A stretch of 40,569 bases of DNA, taken from a virus. Below, piece after piece: positions 664-40,569 of this stretch (its first letter is position 1; each line of letters starts with the position of its first letter). The position numbers and the translations under genes are program-made. The stretch covers positions 1 to 40,569 of IMG/VR virus record IMGVR_UViG_3300026962_000013; one strand, 5' to 3'. The notes below the pieces were generated by a model that was given only the letters and a program-made list of their open reading frames with translations, had not been told where the DNA came from and searched no databases.

Positions 664-1019
664 CGCGTCCGCCGCGGGCGGCCGCCAACCGGTTCCTCGA
701 CCACGACCTCCTCGACAACCCGACGCGAGCCCGCACCGCCCAGGCCCGTATCCGCGGATTAGAAACCCAGGGCCGCGTCGAAACGTGGCGTAGCGTCGAA
801 CTCGCCCTTGACCGCGGCCCCCGACAACAGGTCATCGCCTGGCTCAACCACCGGCAACAGGTCCTCGACACCATCGGCGACCAACCCGAAGACCTGAGCG
901 AGGCGCCACGCGCTGACCGCAACCCCCCAGACCGAGAGTGGGTCTGGATCGGCGTCGACGGCGAGGACCGCGCCTTCGACGACCGACCCACTCGCGCAGA
1001 CGTCGGAGGCCACCCATGA
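660..1019 (+). CDS. Hypothetical viral protein
   Basis: ATGA overlaps with both neighbours; 119 aa. Confidence 0.7.
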   Translation: MTRPPRAAANRFLDHDLLDNPTRARTAQARIRGLETQGRVETWRSVELALDRGPRQQVIAWLNHRQQVLDTIGDQPEDLSEAPRADRNPPDREWVWIGVDGEDRAFDDRPTRADVGGHP

Positions 1020-1282: not shown

Positions 1283-1821
1283 CTGAGGACACGCCAGTAT
1301 CTGGTACAGGCACCACCAGGGTTCGTGACTCGGGGGAGAGACCCCGCCAGCCCGTGGTGTCCCTGCACCCCATCCTCACCGAGGACATTCTCGAAGCCGG
1401 GGATGTCTGTCAGAACTGTCATCGCCGCATCCGCAGTCGACGCGTCCACCGCCGCAGCCGCGACCCCGCCTCGCCGACGAGTGTCCGCCGAAGCAAGTAT
1501 CGGCGCCGACGTCGGTCGACCGTCGTCGACTACGGGCCCGGCGACACCGCCGACGAGTCCCGCGGCGTCTGGTGTCACTGCGGCGCCGAAGACGCGTGGA
1601 CGAGGTTGTGGGAAACAGCGCACTGGGAGCGGGTGCGGGAGCTGATCAAGGCGACCATCCGCACCCTCGAGTCCAAGGGGTACACCGTCGACCGTGACGC
1701 GTTCGCGCTCGTCGCACTCGCCCGGTGTGGGACAGCACCCATCGGACCGAACGGCATCGCCGCCGCGTTGTCCGCATCGATCGCGGCAGGCGTCGACGAG
1801 TCACACCCCATCGACACGTAG
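1279..1821 (+). CDS. Zn-finger-containing hypothetical viral protein
   Basis: CQNC and WCHCG motifs; translationally coupled to upstream gene. Confidence 0.7.
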   Translation: MTEDTPVSGTGTTRVRDSGERPRQPVVSLHPILTEDILEAGDVCQNCHRRIRSRRVHRRSRDPASPTSVRRSKYRRRRRSTVVDYGPGDTADESRGVWCHCGAEDAWTRLWETAHWERVRELIKATIRTLESKGYTVDRDAFALVALARCGTAPIGPNGIAAALSASIAAGVDESHPIDT

Positions 1822-1826
1822 TCAGT

Positions 1827-2060
1827 ATGCCTACATCAATCACGGTGTCCCGGGACCCGTCGGAGTACCGACCGACGATCCATGCCGGGCAACGCGCGAA
1901 AGAGCGTGGCATCAACTGGGATCGGGTGGCGGACGCGATCGACGGTGGCGAGGTGCGGCAGACGCATCGGCGTGGGTGTCGGTTGTTCGTCGACGACGGG
2001 GTCGGTGTGGTCGTCGACGTGGCCGACCGAGAGATATTGACGGTGGGTTGGTACGAGTAG
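1827..2060 (+). CDS. DUF4258-like protein (RelE/BECR-fold nuclease-like)
   Basis: 77 aa from ATG 1827; HAxxRxxERGI...V...I..G...VVVD...ILTV pattern typical of DUF4258. Confidence 0.7.
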   Translation: MPTSITVSRDPSEYRPTIHAGQRAKERGINWDRVADAIDGGEVRQTHRRGCRLFVDDGVGVVVDVADREILTVGWYE

Positions 2061-2149
2061 GTCCCGATGACGGCCGCTGGGGTGCTCCCATGCTCGAGGG
2101 TGTTGCACCGGTCGCGGATGCTGGCAGCTCGTCCGCGAGGATACGTGGT

Positions 2150-2343
2150 CACGGGGATCGGTTCGAGTCCTGTCACTGTGAGTTGCCGACTGCGGCAGCG
2201 AATACGTGCCCTCGCCTCGACGCTGGGTGCCCCCTGGATAACAGGGGATCGCGGGGTCGGGGATTCCCGGGGGTCAGGTGAGAGTCCTGGCTGCCGCACA
2301 TTCGCCTCGTTGGCGGTGCGTGGTTCGACTCCACGCCGAGGTA
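2150..2343 (+). ncRNA. Three small T-loop-capped tRNA-like units (2150-2181, 2251-2298, 2304-2343) plus hairpins
   Basis: T-loops TTCGAGT (2162-2168), TGAGAGT (2279-2285), TTCGACT (2324-2330), each closing a stem that stacks on a short acceptor-like stem. Confidence 0.5.
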
Positions 2344-2355
2344 TCGGCGGATAAG

Positions 2356-2441
2356 GCCGTGAATGGGTGTTGACCCTGCGGAGGCGGTAAACCCGTCTAA
2401 GGCGTTCACGCGTCTGAGTGGGTGAGAACCCTGTCACGGCA
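2356..2441 (+). ncRNA. Non-canonical class-II-like cloverleaf RNA (86 nt)
   Basis: 7-bp GCCGTGA/TCACGGC acceptor + discriminator A, three internal hairpins, T-arm with TGAGAAC loop. Confidence 0.55.
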
Positions 2442-2450
2442 CCGTCGCAC

Positions 2451-2634
2451 GGGCCGATAGCTCAATGGTAGAGTCGGAGAGTAGCGCCACCCGACGTAGA
2501 TTACCCCCGATGTTCACCCCGGAAGGCGCGTCCGGTGTTGGGCGGCATCGGTGAGGTAGAGCGGCACCCGTCCCTGGGTGTGGCGCTCCACGCGATTCGG
2601 AAGCAACGTGCAGGTTCAACTCCTGCTCGGCCCA
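2451..2634 (+). ncRNA. tRNA-like RNA with ~105 nt structured insert in the anticodon arm (184 nt)
   Basis: GGGCCGA/TCGGCCC-A acceptor, TAGCTCAATGGTAGAG D-arm, GCAGG-TTCAACT-CCTGC T-arm; no canonical anticodon loop. Confidence 0.75.
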
Positions 2635-2724
2635 CTCGCCCGCCTGCCGCGGCAGGTGGGAAGTCGCGGGCTGAAAGACGCCAAAGGGAGCGACATCCGA
2701 GCGTTCCCCTACAGCGCGGCGTTC

Positions 2725-2943
2725 GGACCGATAGCTCAGTCTGGGAGAGCACCGGGCTTAGTTCCGTGGTAGTAATCGACCGGGTGACTGAACGCCGCGA
2801 GGCAAATAGGGTGGTCCGGTCGTGAACAAGACGCGGGAAGCGCCATAAGTAGGGAGATACGGCGGGACGCCGCCGTGCCGGTGACGGCTATCCCGAAGGC
2901 GTGGATTGCCTGGCTGTCCCGAGTTCAAATCTCGGTCGGTCCA
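2725..2943 (+). ncRNA. tRNA-like RNA with 152 nt structured insert replacing the anticodon loop (219 nt)
   Basis: GGACCGA/TCGGTCC-A acceptor, GCTC-AGTCTGGGA-GAGC D-arm, CCGGG/CCTGG anticodon stem, CTGTC variable loop, CCGAG-TTCAAAT-CTCGG T-arm. Confidence 0.8.
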
Positions 2944-2945
2944 CT

Positions 2946-3013
2946 GGCCCACGGGTACCCCCGTTGAACCAACCCCACCGGGGTTGGGACCAGCCCCCGA
3001 GGCTGGGTGGGCC
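2946..3013 (+). ncRNA. Four-way-junction RNA without tRNA consensus
   Basis: GGCCCAC/GTGGGCC closing stem enclosing three hairpins (including CCAACCCC/GGGGTTGG and CCAGCC/GGCTGG). Confidence 0.45.
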
Positions 3014-3069
3014 TCCAACCCCGACGCGGCCTCTCCTCCCCCGAGGACGTGACTTCCCCGCGTCACCAA

Positions 3070-3098
3070 CCCGCGTCGACCTCACCCGTCGACGCGGG
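3070..3098. repeat. Perfect 11-bp inverted repeat
   Basis: CCCGCGTCGAC-CTCACCC-GTCGACGCGGG just upstream of ATG 3114. Confidence 0.85.
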
Positions 3099-3113
3099 CC
3101 TCAACACACATTC

Positions 3114-3446
3114 ATGACTGTCGAGCAAAGCCCGATCAGACAACCACTCGCCACCCACCCCGTCACCCGGGTGAAAGCCGAACTCGCCTGCCTCCTCCTC
3201 GTCTTCGTTCCCCACCACGACAACAGCCACACCAGAAAAGTCGCGACGTGGATCCTCGTCGCCACCTGGGCGATCATCACCGTCCTCGTCTCGACCGGCG
3301 ACGCCAACGCCACCGCCACCTACGGTGTCTTGAGCGCTGTCGTGTGGTCGTTGATCGGGCGGTGGTGGGGGATCGAGGCGGACCTGCAGGCATTCGGCGG
3401 CACGATCACGCTCAACCAACAGCAAGACGATTCCAACGACAAATGA
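3114..3446 (+). CDS. Small membrane protein (holin-like candidate)
   Basis: ATG 3114; 2-3 hydrophobic segments, charged C-terminus. Confidence 0.6.
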   Translation: MTVEQSPIRQPLATHPVTRVKAELACLLLVFVPHHDNSHTRKVATWILVATWAIITVLVSTGDANATATYGVLSAVVWSLIGRWWGIEADLQAFGGTITLNQQQDDSNDK

Positions 3447-6012: not shown

Positions 6013-6401
6013 CGGTCCAGATCCTCGTCGAGCCCGACGACGTCGCCCGGCAGCTGCGCGACTACGTCCGCGATCACCCCGACGTCCGGAAGGATCGCTA
6101 CGCCGGCGAAGGCGACCCCATCGAAGGCGCGTGTTACGTGCTCGCCGAGGCGTACTTCCACCTTCGCGGCGGGACGGAATCCCCGTTCGACGTCTACCGA
6201 CTCGACTGGGGTGAGGTCTACGACGGTGTCGAGGGCGCGCACTGGTTCCTTCGCGATGGTGACGACATCGTCGATCTGTCGCTACCGAACCCCGAAGACG
6301 GCTCGGACGTCCCGTGGGATGTCGGCCGGCACCGGGCTTTCATCACTGGCTACGAGCCGAGCAATCGAACGGAGCGCGTCCTGGAGGACCTCAAGACATG
6401 A
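6009..6401 (+). CDS. Papain/transglutaminase-fold-like protein (putative Cys-His-Asp triad)
   Basis: ATG 6009; GACYVLAEAYFH...HWFL...VDLS motif order; coupled to both terminase genes. Confidence 0.6.
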   Translation: MTVQILVEPDDVARQLRDYVRDHPDVRKDRYAGEGDPIEGACYVLAEAYFHLRGGTESPFDVYRLDWGEVYDGVEGAHWFLRDGDDIVDLSLPNPEDGSDVPWDVGRHRAFITGYEPSNRTERVLEDLKT

Positions 6402-8020
6402 GCACTACTGCCAACGTCGACCCGTCCGACGTCGACACCATCCGGGACGTCATGGCCCGGTACGCCAAGTCGACGGGCCCCGACCGGTACGCCCGCTTCA
6501 TCCAGGACCTCCTCGGTCTCCAGCGCACCTACGTCCAGGATCGCATCCTCGCGGCGCTACACGAGCACGAGCAAGTGGTCGTCGCCGGCGCGAACGGCGT
6601 CGGAAAGTCCTACATCGCCGCGGCAGGCGGGATCGCTGCGCTCCACTGCAACCCGGACACGATCGTCAACGTCACCGCCGGGACATCGGGAACGCTGAAG
6701 ACGAACATCTGGAAACCAGCACGATCGCTCTACCGTGGGAGCCCGCTGCCGACGATGTTCGGCGGGCGGACGATGGACGGCGATCGAGAGATCCAGACCG
6801 GCCTTGACGACGAGTGGTTCTTCGAGTGCGTCAGCCCCCGGTACCCCGACGACCTCCAGGGCCCACACAACGACCACGTCATCTACATCATCGAGGAGGC
6901 CGACAAGCCCGGTGTCACTGCAGACCACACCGAGGCCGTCCGGTCGACCGCCACCGACGAGAACGACCGCATCCTCGTCATCGCGAACCCGCCGGATGGG
7001 AGCGGCAACATCGTCCACGAACTGATCGAGAACGACGAGTGGCACCACCTCCAATTCCCCACCTGGGCTGCTCAACCCGTCCGCATCGACCGCGGCCTCG
7101 AGCCGGGAGCGCCGATCGGCGGGCTGGCGACAACGCACAAACTCGAGAAGGACTGGCAGGAGTACCACGACGAGGAATGGCCAGGTCTCGATCAGGCTAT
7201 TCGTTGGTCGGATCCGTGGCTCGGCGCCGAACCCGAGGAGCGCAGCGCCGTCCTCCCAGAGGACCTCGGAGACGTCCCGAACGACGAGTTTCGGGAAGAC
7301 CTCTCCTCGCTCTGGTACCGGCGTCGCTGCGGAATCGTCCCACCGGGCGGCGCGTCGGTTCTCCGCCCGATCGAGCCCAGTGATGTCCGGGCGGCCTACG
7401 ATCGCCAGCCTGCCGCCGTACGCGAGACGCCGCAGTCGGTCGGGATCGACGTCGCCAGGACTACAGACAACACCGTCATGCTCGGCGTCCACGATCTCGA
7501 GCTTCGCGTCCACTACGCCGAGCAAGGCGACAACCACGAGCAACAGAAGCCCGATGTCGTCGACGGAACGGCGTCGACGCCCGGCCTTGCTGAGTGGCCG
7601 GCGCCGGACATCGCCGTCGACAAGGGCTACGCCCCCGGCTTCCACGACTACGTCAACGACCGGTTCCCCAACGTCGTCGGGTTCCAGAACGGAACGAAGC
7701 CGATCGCCGAGACGCGCTGGTACGACAAATGGTCGGAGGCACTCCACCACTTCGGCGAGTTCCTCGAGGAAGGCGGCTCGATCGCCAGCCAGCAGCTCCG
7801 GAAGGAGGCGCTGGCAGCCGCCCGCGTCGTCCAGTACAAGGAGCGGACGCTGGACTCCCGGGGCAAGAACGGCGCCGAGGTCTATCAGGCGACCTCGAAG
7901 GAGGCGATCAAAGAGGAGCTCGGCCACTCGCCGGACTACCTGGACGCGGCCCTGATGGCCGTGTGGGTGGCCCGGACTGACGACCGCGACCAGAAGGCCA
8001 GCCCGACGTTCGGCTGGTAA
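6398..8020 (+). CDS. terL: Terminase large subunit
   Basis: Walker A GANGVGKS, Walker B IYIIEEAD, LVIANP coupling motif, nuclease GIDVAR and SPDYLDA; start at ATG 6398. Confidence 0.95.
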   Translation: MSTTANVDPSDVDTIRDVMARYAKSTGPDRYARFIQDLLGLQRTYVQDRILAALHEHEQVVVAGANGVGKSYIAAAGGIAALHCNPDTIVNVTAGTSGTLKTNIWKPARSLYRGSPLPTMFGGRTMDGDREIQTGLDDEWFFECVSPRYPDDLQGPHNDHVIYIIEEADKPGVTADHTEAVRSTATDENDRILVIANPPDGSGNIVHELIENDEWHHLQFPTWAAQPVRIDRGLEPGAPIGGLATTHKLEKDWQEYHDEEWPGLDQAIRWSDPWLGAEPEERSAVLPEDLGDVPNDEFREDLSSLWYRRRCGIVPPGGASVLRPIEPSDVRAAYDRQPAAVRETPQSVGIDVARTTDNTVMLGVHDLELRVHYAEQGDNHEQQKPDVVDGTASTPGLAEWPAPDIAVDKGYAPGFHDYVNDRFPNVVGFQNGTKPIAETRWYDKWSEALHHFGEFLEEGGSIASQQLRKEALAAARVVQYKERTLDSRGKNGAEVYQATSKEAIKEELGHSPDYLDAALMAVWVARTDDRDQKASPTFGW

Positions 8021-8383: not shown

Positions 8384-10282
8384 ATGAGATCTGATCCATC
8401 GTCGAACGGCGAGCATCACCCAGAGGGTGATGACCAGCCACCGCTCCGCGGAAACGCCGACTTCGACCAGGGCCTCCGGATGGGCATCGCCGCGGCACTC
8501 GGCCACTCGGGCTTCGACGATCGCGACCGCTACGACGTCTTCGGATGGGAGGCCGACCCCGACGAGGACGAGTACCTCGGGCTCTACCTCCGAAACCCGT
8601 ACGCCCGGGCCGTGGTCGATCGACCGGCGACGGCCACCTGGCGCCACGCGCCGGACGTCGTCGACGATGCCGAGTCTGACGAGGCGACGGAGTTCGAGAC
8701 GACTGTCGAGAAACTGCAGCGGAGCCACGACGTCGACAGCTACGCGGAGCGCGCGGACCGCCTCGCGGGCATCGGCGAGTACGGTCTGCTGTTCATCGAC
8801 TTCGACGATACGGAGGAACTCGAGGACCTCGAGGGAGCCTACGATCCCGAAGACGCCACCCTCGACTCCATCCGTGGCTTCCGCGTCTACGCGCAGGCCC
8901 AAATCGACGACATCGACTACGGCGACTTCGGCGACGACCGCTGGGGGCGTCCGAAGTACTACCACGTCGACCTGACCGAAGACATCGACGACGACGCCGA
9001 CGAGGACGGCTACGCGAAAATCCACCACTCCCGGGTGGTCGCCGTGCCGAGTACACAGCTCCTCGACGACGAGGACAAGGCCCGCCCCCGGCTCGAGCCC
9101 GTCCTCAACCCGCTCTACGACATCGAGAAGACGCTCGGCGCCGTCGCCGAGGCAGCATACTCGAGCGCCAACTCCGACATCTGGCTCAACCAGAACCCCG
9201 ACCAGGTCGACCCCACCGACAACGACAATCTCCGCGACGAGTTCATGCGCTTCTACCACCAGGGGCAGCCCTTCCTCCGGACGGTCGGGTCCGACGTCGA
9301 GCAGCTTTCCGGTGAGGTGCAGGACCCGTCGGGGCTGATCGACACGGAGCTCTCGGCGATTGCCGCGCAGACGGGCATCCCGAAGCGGATCCTCTCGGGC
9401 GACGCTGCAGGCGAGCTCTCCGCGAGCCAGGAGGACACCCGACGCTGGTACGCCCGCATCCGCGAGCGTCAGCAGCAGTACGCGGCGCCGCTCCTCTTCA
9501 GGCCGCTGATCGACATGCTTCGGGAGTACGGCATCCTGCCGGAGCCCGCTGGCGGCACCTACGAGATCGGCTGGCCGGAGCTCTACGAGCCGACTGAGCA
9601 GGAGATCGCCGAGCGGCAGCAGGCTCGCAGCGAGACGGCGCGAAATCTATCGCAGGTGGCGCCGGGCTTCTCGGGTGACACGGCGATCGACTACATCGAG
9701 ACTGGCGAGTTCCCCGAGGAGGAGACGACGGCGGAGCTGGAGGACATGGACGAGGACGACCCCGACGTCAGCGCCCAGTTCCGTCGGCAGTACCTCCCGG
9801 ACGCCGTCGGGAACGCGACGCGCTACACCGAGGGCGACCAGGTGATGACCCCGCAGGGAATCGGCGTGGTCGCCGAGGTTCGCACCGAGCCGTTCGAGGG
9901 CAAGAACGGCGAGATCGAGGCCAGCGACTCCTCTCCCGTCTACGTCGTCGGGCTCAAAGACGAGCGCGTCGGCGTCGGGTTCTACACGGCCAGTGAGCTC
10001 GAGGCTGACGAGATCGAGACTGATGTCGAGGACCCGGTCGGGGACGTTCGCGCGAACGCCTGCGTCGGTCGCGACGACGTAACCGCGAACGACTGGTCGA
10101 TGCCGGAGAGCTGGCGCGAGTCGGACACGCCGGCGCGGCTGATCCTCCTCGACGCATGGTCGTCGATGGGAGGCCAGTTCGACTGCGGTGGCGGCTGTTG
10201 CATGGGCGAACTGAAGTCCCGCCGGCTGTGCGCCTCGATGAAGGACGAGGTGCTCGGCGGCTGGGAAGGCTGGCGGAGATGA
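8384..10282 (+). CDS. Portal protein with C-terminal extension
   Basis: RNPYARAVVDRPA and AAQTGIPKRILSG...ASQED..WY..I..RQ portal motifs; about 170 aa extra C-terminal region. Confidence 0.9.
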   Translation: MRSDPSSNGEHHPEGDDQPPLRGNADFDQGLRMGIAAALGHSGFDDRDRYDVFGWEADPDEDEYLGLYLRNPYARAVVDRPATATWRHAPDVVDDAESDEATEFETTVEKLQRSHDVDSYAERADRLAGIGEYGLLFIDFDDTEELEDLEGAYDPEDATLDSIRGFRVYAQAQIDDIDYGDFGDDRWGRPKYYHVDLTEDIDDDADEDGYAKIHHSRVVAVPSTQLLDDEDKARPRLEPVLNPLYDIEKTLGAVAEAAYSSANSDIWLNQNPDQVDPTDNDNLRDEFMRFYHQGQPFLRTVGSDVEQLSGEVQDPSGLIDTELSAIAAQTGIPKRILSGDAAGELSASQEDTRRWYARIRERQQQYAAPLLFRPLIDMLREYGILPEPAGGTYEIGWPELYEPTEQEIAERQQARSETARNLSQVAPGFSGDTAIDYIETGEFPEEETTAELEDMDEDDPDVSAQFRRQYLPDAVGNATRYTEGDQVMTPQGIGVVAEVRTEPFEGKNGEIEASDSSPVYVVGLKDERVGVGFYTASELEADEIETDVEDPVGDVRANACVGRDDVTANDWSMPESWRESDTPARLILLDAWSSMGGQFDCGGGCCMGELKSRRLCASMKDEVLGGWEGWRR

Positions 10283-29154: not shown

Positions 29155-29703
29155 ATGACAGACGATGGGATGAATGAAGATGAGGACAAAGTTGCGGTGG
29201 ACGCGGGTAGCGTAACGGAAGCATCAGTAAAAGCCCCCAAGCCGAGCGTAATCCTTTATCCTGGCGATCAACTCAGGGATCGACGTAATGGAATCATTCA
29301 GCACCATTATCGGCATTCCGAGATTCCATTGGACAAATTGCGGGCATTCATCATCTACGCATCCGGTGTAATCGAGGTATATTGTACTAAGTTAATTCGA
29401 GAGGAGGTCATCGCGGCGGATTACCAACATCAAGCGTATTCATATTTGCTTGAGGATATGAGTCAGACCCACCGGGAGTCTCTATTATCTCAATGCGATC
29501 TATTTGATGATTCACTTTGTGGTAGCCTTGGCAATTTTCGTGGATTGAGGAATAAGCTCGCTCACCAACCGCATGATCCTATTGATTGGGATGAAGAGAA
29601 CGTTCCGAGTAAAATGACTCTGGGCATCGATATTATCGATGTACTCTATGAGGCGTTGCGTAGTGGCGACGCCTCAGAAAGCCTCTCAGATCATTCGCTT
29701 TGA
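29155..29703 (+). CDS. HEPN-domain protein (putative RNase)
   Basis: Helical protein with RNKLAH (R-x4-H) motif; low GC, AT-rich upstream region. Confidence 0.7.
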   Translation: MTDDGMNEDEDKVAVDAGSVTEASVKAPKPSVILYPGDQLRDRRNGIIQHHYRHSEIPLDKLRAFIIYASGVIEVYCTKLIREEVIAADYQHQAYSYLLEDMSQTHRESLLSQCDLFDDSLCGSLGNFRGLRNKLAHQPHDPIDWDEENVPSKMTLGIDIIDVLYEALRSGDASESLSDHSL

Positions 29704-35415: not shown

Positions 35416-35836
35416 GAAAACCATCTCCGGATGGTTGATCATCGACTGGCAACAGGGCAGTCACCGCACCCGGAAGTCCAAACCCGGCGCCGCCGAACTC
35501 GGGACGAACGAACTCGTCGCGGAACTCACCGTCGACGTCAACGTTCCCGAGGTCGAGGTGCCGGAACTCGCCGTCGAGATCGACGTGCCCGAACCCCACG
35601 TCCACGCCGCGACGTTGGAAGCATTAGACGATGAGCAGCTCCCGGGGTGGACGGACATCGCGAACGACGTGATCGAACCGCCGATCCCCGGCGATTATGT
35701 CGAGTTCCAATCCGAAGTGGATTCGGTGTCGATGCAGGTGTTGACCAAGGCATCGACACGTCCAGATCCGGAGGCGGTTCGGGACTACGTTGGGGAGACG
35801 ATGCGGGAGGTTGCCGGAGGGGTTGCTGATGAGTGA
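35408..35836 (+). CDS. Hypothetical viral protein
   Basis: Acidic; coupled. Confidence 0.75.
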   Translation: MPEKTISGWLIIDWQQGSHRTRKSKPGAAELGTNELVAELTVDVNVPEVEVPELAVEIDVPEPHVHAATLEALDDEQLPGWTDIANDVIEPPIPGDYVEFQSEVDSVSMQVLTKASTRPDPEAVRDYVGETMREVAGGVADE

Positions 35837-35984
35837 TGTTGGGTTCACCCAGGGCATCGAGACGAAAGACCTCGTCAGCGGGTGGGCCGGCATCGTCCAG
35901 TTCGCCGACGGCACCGCCCGCAAGGTGTGGGCTCCCACCGAAGCCAGAGCTCGAGCGAAAGCCCAGGAGGTCCTCGATGAGTAA
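35829..35984 (+). CDS. Small hypothetical protein
   Basis: Coupled on both sides. Confidence 0.55.
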   Translation: MSDVGFTQGIETKDLVSGWAGIVQFADGTARKVWAPTEARARAKAQEVLDE

Positions 35985-36867
35985 AAGCGCCACCGCCCAG
36001 TCGACGTGCCCCGAATGCCAGGGCGCACTCGACGACACCGGCAACGAAACCACGTGCCGGAGCTGCGGCTTGGTCGTCGACGAACAATGGATCGACCACG
36101 GCCCAGACTGGCGCACGTTCGACGGGTCCGACCAAGACCAGCGTCGGGTCGGGGCGCCACGCACGCCCAGCCTTCACGACCACGGCCTCGGCTCCAGCAT
36201 CGGCCACGACTCGGTCGCGACCGGATCGAAACGACAGCGAATCGGTCGGCAACGGAGTCTGCACAAGCAATCGAAGTTCGCAACGAAAGCGGAGCGGAAC
36301 CAGGCGTATGCCCTCAGTGAAATCCGTCGCATCGCCGGCGCCCTCGACCTCGCCGACAGCCTCCGGGACCAAGCCGCCCAACTCCTCAAAACCGCGCAAG
36401 GCCAGAACCTGATCCAGGGACGGTCGCTGGAGGGGTTCGCCGGCGCCTGCCTGTACGCCGCCTGCCGGATCAACGGTCTACCCCGAACCCGCGAAGACAT
36501 CGACGCGTACAGTCGTTGCACACCCAGTCAGTTGGAGAACGGGTACGAGGCCCTGCAACGCGACCTCGGCATCGGCGCGGCCCCGATTGATGCGAAGGCC
36601 TACATCCCACGGTTCGCGTCCGAACTCGACGTCTCGGACAGCGTCGAAAGACGGGCGACGACGCTGTGCGACGCATGGACGGACGCCAACCCCTGTTCCG
36701 GGCGAGCGCCCAGCGGCGTCGCCGCAGCCTGTCTCTACTGCGCCATCCAGGAGCAAGACGGCGACATCACCCAGGGCCACGTGGCCGCGGTGGCAGATAC
36801 AACGCCGCATACGTTGCGTGATACGATCGTGGACCTCCGCGACCTCACAGGGGGTGAGGACGCGTGA
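35977..36867 (+). CDS. tfb: Transcription initiation factor B homolog
   Basis: CPEC...CRSCGLV Zn ribbon, IDHGPDWR B-reader, RVGAP, LHDHGL, two cyclin repeats (GRSLE..A.ACLYAACR; GRAPSGVAAACLY). Confidence 0.95.
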   Translation: MSKSATAQSTCPECQGALDDTGNETTCRSCGLVVDEQWIDHGPDWRTFDGSDQDQRRVGAPRTPSLHDHGLGSSIGHDSVATGSKRQRIGRQRSLHKQSKFATKAERNQAYALSEIRRIAGALDLADSLRDQAAQLLKTAQGQNLIQGRSLEGFAGACLYAACRINGLPRTREDIDAYSRCTPSQLENGYEALQRDLGIGAAPIDAKAYIPRFASELDVSDSVERRATTLCDAWTDANPCSGRAPSGVAAACLYCAIQEQDGDITQGHVAAVADTTPHTLRDTIVDLRDLTGGEDA

Positions 36868-39180: not shown

Positions 39181-39331
39181 TCACACCCACGCCAAAGACC
39201 CGCAGGACATGACCGACGAAGAACTCGTCGAAACAATCCGCAACAGCGACCTCGAACTCGCCACCGTCGCCGACGAACTCGAAACCCTCCTCGAACTCTA
39301 CGACGATGTCCCCGGAGGCGACTCCTCATGA
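39170..39331 (+). CDS. Small acidic protein (53 aa) overlapping the integrase 3' end
   Basis: Translated by hand; GGAGG SD upstream. Confidence 0.55.
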   Translation: MASSHTHAKDPQDMTDEELVETIRNSDLELATVADELETLLELYDDVPGGDSS

Positions 39332-40569
39332 CCCCCGCGAACCCGATCCAACACCGCCCCCACCAACCGCTGCTCGAACGTCGTCAACTCCCGCTCGGAG
39401 AGATCCGCCGCGGCACTCGCCTGAATCTCATCGACCGACGCCTGCGCATCCGGCGCATGCGGCAACACCTGATTGCACCACATGCACACCGGGTGCTCCC
39501 GCGGAGTCTCCCGACCACACCGCGGACACTCCACCGGTCCCGTTGCCTCCCCCGTCTCTTCAGCGACGTCGACACCGTGGGCCTTCGCGATCTCCCGCCG
39601 ATTCGCATCGTCGAACACCGCGATGTACCGGCTCGCCACCTGCGACCCGCTCACCCACCCATGATGCTGCTCCAAATGCGCCTGACTCACGCCCTGCGAC
39701 GCCAGGAACGATGCACTACTTTTCCGCAGTCGTCGCGGCGTCGGCGACGCCGGCGGCACCATCTCCGCCGCCGCAGCCTTCTCCTTGATGATGTCCCTGA
39801 CCCGGTTATTCGAGATCGGGTCACACGCGTTGACCCGCGTCCACAAGGCCGTGTCCGAACCCCTGTCAGCCGGGTGGTCACCCAACCACTGTCGCACGTA
39901 CGGCGCGCTCGGGATCAGCAACGGGGAGCGCGTCCCCTGCTTGCCCTGGTGGAGCGTCACCCGCATCCCGAGGTCGTCGTCGGTGAACCGGTCGACTGTG
40001 AGGTCGAAGAGTTCGCTGGGTCGCGGTCCCAGGTCCCACGCCAACGCGATGAGGCATCGGTCGCGACTGTTGTGACACGCGTCCAGCATCGGTTGGATGT
40101 GCTCCTCCCATCGATACATCTCCTCGGGGGTCGGTGCCGGGTCGTAGGTGCTCGGGTAGCCGCCGGGGATCCAGTCTATGGAGTCGGGTTTCCCGTCGTT
40201 GTCGGTGCCGAGGTCGCCGAGCATGCGGAGGGTGACGCGGTAGTCCTTGTTGGATTCGGGGTTGTCGTAGGTTTGGTGGATCCAGCGGACGATGGCTTCG
40301 GCGGCGTCGCGGTCGTGCATGGCGTCGACGAGTTCGTCGGTGTGTTCGGCGATGCGGATGCCGCGTTTGAGCAGGAATTCGTGGCGTTGGTCGCTGTATT
40401 GGCTTTTGCCGAGGAGGTCGATTTCGTCGCTGACCTCGAGGAGGAGGTCGGCCTCGTCCGCGGTGATGGGGTCGTCGGGGTCGAGGGTGGTGAGTCGGTC
40501 GCGCATGCTCTGGATTTGGCTGCGTGGGTAGTCGGTCACGGGTTGGGCAGAGACACCGGCGGTGGGCAT
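39298..40569 (-). CDS. int: Tyrosine integrase (SNJ2-like) with C-terminal Zn ribbon
   Basis: LGPRPSEL, GKQG, PRRLRKSSAS, HHGW, SRYI catalytic motifs; CPRC...CMWC; true start may be GTG 40539 (MTDYPR). Confidence 0.92.
   Translation of the reverse strand: MPTAGVSAQPVTDYPRSQIQSMRDRLTTLDPDDPITADEADLLLEVSDEIDLLGKSQYSDQRHEFLLKRGIRIAEHTDELVDAMHDRDAAEAIVRWIHQTYDNPESNKDYRVTLRMLGDLGTDNDGKPDSIDWIPGGYPSTYDPAPTPEEMYRWEEHIQPMLDACHNSRDRCLIALAWDLGPRPSELFDLTVDRFTDDDLGMRVTLHQGKQGTRSPLLIPSAPYVRQWLGDHPADRGSDTALWTRVNACDPISNNRVRDIIKEKAAAAEMVPPASPTPRRLRKSSASFLASQGVSQAHLEQHHGWVSGSQVASRYIAVFDDANRREIAKAHGVDVAEETGEATGPVECPRCGRETPREHPVCMWCNQVLPHAPDAQASVDEIQASAAADLSERELTTFEQRLVGAVLDRVRGGHEESPPGTSS

Follow-up and report, generated by a model that had tools for sequence, protein, structure and literature searches.

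The tRNA-like unit E of this haloarchaeal provirus is a real tRNA-derived element and a variant among t-elements and viral tRNA pseudogenes. It retains the complete tRNA frame and carries a GC-rich insert of 106 nt in place of the anticodon loop. It is not a canonical intron-containing tRNA; it is unable to decode, and canonical splicing cannot remove the insert. It is either a tRNA look-alike that does not decode or a tRNA gene that has died, and it has so far been seen in this one virus only. Tentatively and with appreciable doubt, we lean toward reading E as a t-element-like module that derives from a tRNA, does not decode and belongs to a processed non-coding transcript of the virus.

The window, i.e. 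the whole analyzed stretch of 40,569 bases with 64% G+C, is an IMG/VR provirus record of a temperate tailed virus with haloarchaea as the host group. Besides the packaging module and the integrase (Table 1), a Mu-F-like head gene is encoded. Among cultured viruses, Haloarcula tailed virus 3 (Pyrstoviridae, Kirjokansivirales) is closest in its terminase, with 43% identity. An ENA and a Logan assembly contain identical copies of the first 6 kb and, with them, of the entire non-coding block. In the host DNA immediately left of the provirus, the ENA contig carries a tRNA-Met(CAU) that is interrupted by a 65-nt intron in a strict bulge–helix–bulge (BHB) motif (L110, 2853–2992), and a similar intron-bearing tRNA-Met adjoins the Halovenus marina relative (L012, 2714–2846). 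The intron-bearing tRNA-Met is probably the integration site common to both. Directly upstream of the block, a gene for 77 amino acids (1827–2060) has no Pfam match at E ≤ 0.01, with DUF4258 unconfirmed. The conserved protein upstream of it (1279–1821) is of no use for finding relatives because it has no homologue except itself in a set of 5.8 billion proteins. Elsewhere in the provirus, positions 29155–29703 encode a weak match to HEPN (RiboL-PSP) that stays below the threshold, and positions 35833–36867 encode a clear homologue of TFIIB.

The block itself contains no gene between 2060 and 3114 by gene calling in two independent assemblies, and neither T-runs nor TATA-like hexamers occur within 1800–3300. 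Units B to F are arranged head to tail with spacers of 5 to 90 nt, with the neighbors of E being 9 and 90 nt away. None of the six units is a decoding tRNA. At both the gathering threshold and E ≤ 10, Rfam returns no tRNA or other credible family within 2040–3120; the weak, non-significant matches to sR22 and mascRNA fall in other parts of the block.

Table 1. Features of the provirus, of unit E and of the equivalent loci in related proviruses. Positions refer to the window unless a locus is named.
Feature	Positions	Strand	Remark
Non-coding block holding E	2060–3113	+	K-turn hairpin 2063–2100, then tRNA-like units A–F
K-turn hairpin	window 2063–2100; L012 8127–8153; L002 557–595; L008 7312–7351; L050 7822–7867; L057 8104–8144		
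Unit E	2451–2634	+	fifth of six tRNA-like units; ~184 nt
Acceptor 5' strand GGGCCGA	2451–2457	+	seven Watson–Crick pairs with TCGGCCC 2627–2633
U8, A9, D arm and position 26 (C)	2458–2475	+	sequence reading; arm drawn by ARAGORN intron mode
Residual anticodon-stem 5' strand GGAG	2476–2479	+	complements CTCC 2586–2589
GC-rich 106-nt insert replacing the anticodon loop	2480–2585	+	helices from folding
Residual anticodon-stem 3' strand CTCC	2586–2589	+	complements GGAG
20-nt "variable" stretch, ACGC GATTC GGAAGCAACGT	2590–2609	+	GATTC able to pair with GAGTC 2471–2475
T arm GCAGG / TTCAACT / CCTGC	2610–2626	+	pair probability 0.99 in all contexts tested
Acceptor 3' strand TCGGCCC and discriminator A2634	2627–2634	+	CCA not encoded
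Unit F	2725–2943		body compared with Halovenus tRNA-Ile(GAU): first 17 bases and acceptor identical
Homologous tRNA-shaped unit of ~205 nt	L008 7401–7606; L002 about 719–915		
Terminase-like ATPase gene	6314–8020		packaging module, downstream of the non-coding block
Phage portal gene	8384–10282		packaging module
Tyrosine integrase gene	39298–40569	−	right end of the provirus

In its acceptor, D and T arms, the frame of E is that of a tRNA. Across acceptor, D and T arms, all 16 stem pairs are intact, one of them being G-U, and there is no mismatch. The D stem GCTC/GAGT (2460–2474) closes the loop AATGGTA, with A14, A15, G18, G19 and A21 all present, and U48 precedes the T stem; the elbow invariants are all kept (D-loop GG, U8/A14 and A15/U48). 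An earlier note on this DNA had described canonical acceptor, D and T arms, which is borne out by direct reading, by the intron mode of ARAGORN and by a scan of our own. ARAGORN finds no tRNA in the whole window in its default mode; in intron mode, it reports 2451–2635, and units E and F are its sole calls in the window. Our scan takes each T arm with the acceptor strand behind it and requires a complementary 7-mer 35–330 nt upstream. Over both strands of the 40.5 kb, it matches units B, E and F only, all inside the 1-kb block, so that the frame of E is not a product of chance. In thermodynamic terms, the arms differ. With unit E folded alone, the acceptor stem has a pair probability of 0.98, whereas the D stem reaches only 0.08–0.11 in the folding ensemble; with the flanks included in folding, the predicted acceptor pairing of E is lost.

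The insert is organized as a 5-nt bulge AGTAG, a closing helix CGCCAC/GTGGCG and a three-way junction, whose arms are TACC/GGTA continued by CCGATG/CATCGG, and CACCC/GGGTG. A branched domain of ~105 nt had been noted in place of the anticodon loop, and the measured 106 nt, with its helices present, agrees with this. The nested helices named at the time are likewise recovered with the unit folded alone, at pair probabilities of 0.97 for TACC/GGTA, 0.99 for CCGATG/CATCGG and 0.89 for CACCC/GGGTG; GCGCCAC/GTGGCGC reaches 0.66. The statement that the anticodon arm continues as GGAG/CTCC and GCGCCAC/GTGGCGC holds only in part: the complementarity is there, but the two helices share one C (GTGGCGCTCC is 10 nt long), and GGAG/CTCC has an ensemble probability of ~0.01. 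The stem can thus be drawn either with 4 bp and 6 bp separated by the 5-nt bulge AGTAG, or with 3 bp and 7 bp. Because of this overlap by one C, the bulges measure 5 nt and, for ACGC on the 3' side, 4 nt. The competitor of GGAG/CTCC is GAGTC/GATTC, which reaches 0.73 and takes up the 3' strand of the D stem. The cloverleaf of the earlier note lies 3.3 kcal/mol above the minimum free energy structure. Its 20-nt variable region was found as described. A class II (Leu/Ser) origin of this stretch is not supported, as it is unlike the class II variable arms of the host.

Compared with dinucleotide-preserving shuffles, the folding energy of unit E is not above chance (z = −0.97), and the insert alone folds no better than chance either (z = −0.01). 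It is thus the tRNA frame, and not the "ornate" domain, that is statistically solid. By inspection, the insert contains no K-turn and neither a C nor a D box, and a C/D-box guide as in the tRNA-Trp intron is not supported on this ground. A mobile-element origin is likewise unsupported: terminal inverted repeats of 6–7 nt are present, but there is neither a target duplication nor a second copy. Positions 2511–2555 of the insert hold a reading frame of 14 codons from ATG to TGA (MFTPEGASGVGRHR), which is taken as chance. 

Whether the insert could be an intron was approached with a scanner for the strict BHB motif, defined as an outer helix, a central 4-bp helix and two 3-nt bulges, each located 3' of the central helix on its own strand, with the cut placed after the second bulge base. 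The scanner returns a single clean motif for each of two real introns. In Halovenus tRNA-Arg(UCU), the motif is flanked by helices of 7 and 9 bp and its cut reproduces the loop CUUCUAA; in the host tRNA-Met beside the provirus, the helices have 5 and 5 bp and the loop reproduced is CUCAUAA. With both flanking helices of at least 3 bp, no motif is observed within 2441–2645, where shuffles give 1.1. With at least 2 bp, seven are observed in unit E against 7.7 expected, all of them at places from which no tRNA could arise. The block as a whole is again at chance level, with six observed and 4.8 expected. The sole well-supported BHB-like layout in E has bulges of 5 and 4 nt instead of 3 and 3. It had been claimed before that no strict motif could be fitted, with best bulges of 4 and 5 nt, and the scan confirms it. 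The companion claim, that no normal 7-nt anticodon loop fits, is confirmed by enumerating every single excision between D arm and T arm: none gives a 5-bp stem with a Y32-U33-NNN-R37 loop. The best excisions have four of the five stem pairs, G32 and a 20-nt variable region, and the best one at the canonical position has a G32 loop with the anticodon AGC and an A31–G39 mismatch, and it lacks a matching BHB.

Re-running ARAGORN on all possible spliced variants was uninformative, with 658 of the 874 accepted and dozens of "anticodons" proposed, because the frame is strong. The His(GTG) identity given by ARAGORN was rejected, since it sets the intron arbitrarily at 31/32 and G-1 is absent (base 2450 is C). 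The Rfam tRNA model does not match unit E at E ≤ 10; checked on a haloarchaeal genome, the same model also misses the long-intron tRNAs for Met and Trp, so that this miss is no evidence against an intron. A model made from host tRNAs gives E a score for its T arm only (12.2 bits), as compared with 41 bits for the intron-bearing host tRNA-Met. Neither model joins the two halves of E, which the penalty for an insertion of 126 nt can explain. The intron-containing tRNAs of haloarchaea (Trp, Met and Arg) resemble E in that their frame is broken at the anticodon region by ~30–105 nt and in that default tRNA finders miss them. However, the true intron tRNAs of a related host and of the site beside the provirus have a strict 3-4-3 BHB, flanking helices of 5–9 bp and canonical loops, whereas the bulges of E measure 5 and 4 nt and its anticodon loop cannot be recovered.

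Homologues of E were found neither in the phage database, nor in IMG/VR, nor in 401 Halobacteria genomes, nor at the corresponding loci of the related proviruses; beyond the window, E occurs solely as identical copies in two further assemblies. As no homologue was found, there is nothing to show for selection on E. The insert has no other copy in the window or in the 401 Halobacteria genomes. BLAST searches of the block against phages, the loci of relatives and the same genomes gave short, chance-level matches only, the best of which lies in G158 in what is apparently coding sequence (judged by inspection). The short halves of E show only generic tRNA similarity in the phage database. A pattern scan of IMG/VR for E/F-like frames with gaps of 135–200 nt returned 52 loci, and none is E-like: all are on viral contigs of low to mid GC content (0.30–0.56), the pattern runs across two neighboring tRNAs, and there is no pairing between the acceptor halves. 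Regarding its ancestry, the body of E is nearest to Halovenus tRNAs of the Lys(UUU), Ile(GAU) and Met types, which is not decisive, and the anticodon stem GGAG/CTCC occurs in no Halovenus host tRNA.

The body of the neighboring unit F scores 35 against Halovenus tRNA-Ile(GAU), 30 against the tRNA-Phe of L004 and 26 against Halovenus tRNA-Phe. Removal of 2759–2903 leaves CCGGG-CUGAUUG-CCUGG, with the anticodon GAU but with U37. Because of the higher body score and the GAU obtained by excision, an origin of F from tRNA-Ile looks more likely than one from tRNA-Phe. The first 14 frame bases of E and F are the same, and their leaders and trailers are weakly similar; as judged by this resemblance, the pair is compatible with a tandem duplication. 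At 2810–2822 of unit F, GGUGGUCCGGUCG resembles UGGUCCGA, a signature of the Ro-binding stem in Y RNAs, but it is situated on the 3' strand of a helix, and Rfam gives no Y RNA match.

In viruses with terminases 79–86% identical, a non-coding block occupies the equivalent position upstream of the packaging genes. What fills this slot is either a true tRNA or further units of tRNA shape that carry large inserts, in most cases preceded by a conserved K-turn hairpin. In L004, it is a canonical tRNA-Phe (65 bits with the host-tRNA model). In L008 and L002, it is a homologous unit composed, in this order, of an acceptor, a hairpin, a long helix with a large insert of ~130 nt, a 3-nt connector, a T arm and then a T-run, with a conserved GCUGAGAAGGACAACCACCGCG stretch. 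At ~70% identity, the two copies differ by a compensatory change from C-G to U-A in the T stem and by a G-U/G-C change in the acceptor. The blocks of L012 and L057 end with a T arm and an acceptor-like helix. The architecture of a tRNA frame with an expanded anticodon arm thus recurs in the virus group and is conserved in one case, which suggests that the group maintains it. Distant terminase relatives (~40% identity) have ordinary tRNAs only, and these are probably host tRNAs at integration (att) sites.

The K-turn hairpin opens the block in six proviruses, the one in the window included. Its consensus CCC-GAU-GA-C [stem-loop] C-GA-GGG is invariant, and the inner stem shows covariation at its first pairs (GGC/GCU, CGA/UCG, GUC/GAU, GGC/GCC and CC/GG). 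Possibly, no other RNA feature of the block is as conserved as this hairpin, which is probably a binding site of the L7Ae type.

Among the known RNA systems closest to E are the t-elements of haloarchaea. They are substrates of RNase P and tRNase Z, whose cuts release the flanking RNAs (PMC4326828), and one is located upstream of 5S rRNA in Haloferax volcanii, as described by Holzle et al. (2008, 2012) and relayed in PMC4326828. E shares with t-elements the acceptor/T-arm structure, the lack of a decoding function and the host group. T-elements sit in a longer transcript, where they define the ends of neighboring RNAs, and the same is proposed for E. Unlike them, E has a full D arm, all elbow invariants and the 106-nt expansion of the anticodon arm, is encoded by a virus and is one of six tandem units. 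Pseudogenes and stable RNAs of phage tRNA clusters, such as the stable RNAs C and D in the cluster of T4, are likewise non-decoding, tRNA-related, arranged head to tail and probably matured by tRNA-processing enzymes. Loss of decoding is found in E as in viral tRNA pseudogenes, but signs of neutral decay (stem mismatches and lost invariants) are not: E has one large insertion in a flawless frame instead of scattered decay, and its array is without a decoding tRNA. The Y RNA mimics of the YrlA type (RF02553) and tmRNA resemble E in joining a tRNA-like module to a large non-tRNA domain. The ends of YrlA RNA, however, lie in the Ro-binding stem and not in an acceptor stem. No Y RNA or YrlA match was obtained from Rfam at E ≤ 10 within 2040–3120, and the provirus has no TROVE/Ro60 gene; matches of the TROVE type occur in 19 of the 201 Halobacteria genomes sampled. 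tmRNA was excluded because pair 3-70 is G-C instead of G3-U70 and ARAGORN reports no tmRNA. Archaea are not known to have a tmRNA system.

RNase P, tRNase Z and the CCA-adding enzyme act on those parts of a tRNA that E retains. As a module of a processed transcript, E would be transcribed within the block together with its neighbors, as the lack of any promoter-like or terminator-like signal leads us to infer. By analogy with t-elements, host RNase P would cut at 2451 and tRNase Z after 2634. These cuts would separate the upstream from the downstream RNAs and would free a stable RNA of ~184 nt, possibly with a CCA tail; being cut out at tRNA-type ends, E would act as a processing and stabilizing module. 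The insert would, in the simplest view, be an expansion of the anticodon arm that these enzymes tolerate. The likeness of the array to a phage tRNA cluster and the true tRNA-Phe in the slot of L004 count for this reading. The main rival, though on the unlikely side, is a dead tRNA gene of the virus, which may have arisen by duplication of F's ancestor and was recently killed by an insertion or expansion of ~100 nt in the anticodon loop, without function and as yet undecayed. The irrecoverable anticodon loop, an insert with neither structural signal above chance nor relatives, and the singleton status of E among related proviruses are as such a gene would have them; the weak flank similarity of E and F suggests the duplication, and haloarchaeal viruses such as HGTV-1 are reported to carry pseudogenes of tRNAs (PMC13532342). 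The absence of any mismatch in 16 frame pairs and the retention of all elbow invariants speak against decay, but the intact frame could simply reflect a recent insertion. Against a dead gene are also the large, unrelated inserts at the same architectural position in E, F and the L008/L002 units, and the compensatory changes with which the L008/L002 frame is conserved.

The earlier note had favored a tRNA-scaffolded RNA over an intron-containing tRNA. Its rejection of the intron stands, with no strict BHB and no workable excision; the positive half, which would imply a functional passenger domain, is less secure, as the insert folds no better than shuffled sequence, has no homologue in the collections searched and carries no recognizable motif. 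An effector RNA in which the frame serves as a carrier for stability and processing, and the 106-nt insert is functional, e.g. as a protein-binding or decoy domain, is thus quite doubtful. The high pair probabilities of the inner helices in the isolated unit, the architecture conserved in L008/L002 and the K-turn hairpin at the start of the block, which suggests a ribonucleoprotein, would suit it. Against it stand the z-score of the insert, its lack of conservation and of a K-turn or C/D box, the absence of any Rfam family, Y RNA and YrlA included, and the missing TROVE/Ro60 gene. A processing module or a freshly inactivated tRNA gene fits at least as well. A broader version, in which viruses of the group would encode a natural "tRNA-scaffold" family with lineage-specific domains for the anticodon arm, a K-turn leader (L7Ae-type), maturation by the host and a protein-binding or decoy role, with E as one member, is unlikely. 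It is very improbable that E is a real tRNA whose unusual intron is spliced out through a BHB-like arrangement or another route. The topology is right, with helices of 5 (GAGTC/GATTC), 4 (GGAG/CTCC) and 6 bp (CGCCAC/GTGGCG), the outer one at a probability of 0.73, and the tRNA-Met and tRNA-Trp of haloarchaea do have long introns that Rfam misses. Yet the bulges are 5 and 4 nt instead of 3 and 3, and a cut there would give the loop GGAGAGC without U33 and without a 5-bp stem; the best canonical-position solution is defective as described above (G32, AGC, A31–G39, no BHB), and the G-1 needed for His is absent. The host-type endonuclease is, in addition, of the α2 homodimer form, whereas a tolerance for other bulge lengths is reported mainly from the (αβ)2 enzymes of TACK archaea (PMC7714728). 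Scarcely credible, too, is a DNA-level element in which the dense inverted repeats of the block form a packaging or replication site and the tRNA resemblance is incidental. The block is rich in palindromes and does precede the packaging module, but the T loop, the D loop, the U8/A14/U48 invariants and the 7-bp acceptor are sensible at the RNA level only, and a relative has a real tRNA in the equivalent slot.

For annotation, E is a warning in two respects: default tRNA finders and Rfam miss it and genuine long-intron tRNAs alike, and a finder in intron mode gives it an arbitrary identity (His). Should E prove to be no more than a dead tRNA gene, it would be an ordinary by-product of the turnover of viral tRNA clusters. 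Its significance would be greater only if the wider block of K-turn and tRNA frames proves to be a functional viral RNA system. Processing by tRNA mimics is known from the rRNA operons of haloarchaea and from unrelated eukaryotic systems, and no description from an archaeal virus was found in the searchable literature. If E is processed as proposed, an archaeal virus would use tRNA mimicry to cut and stabilize a long non-coding transcript.
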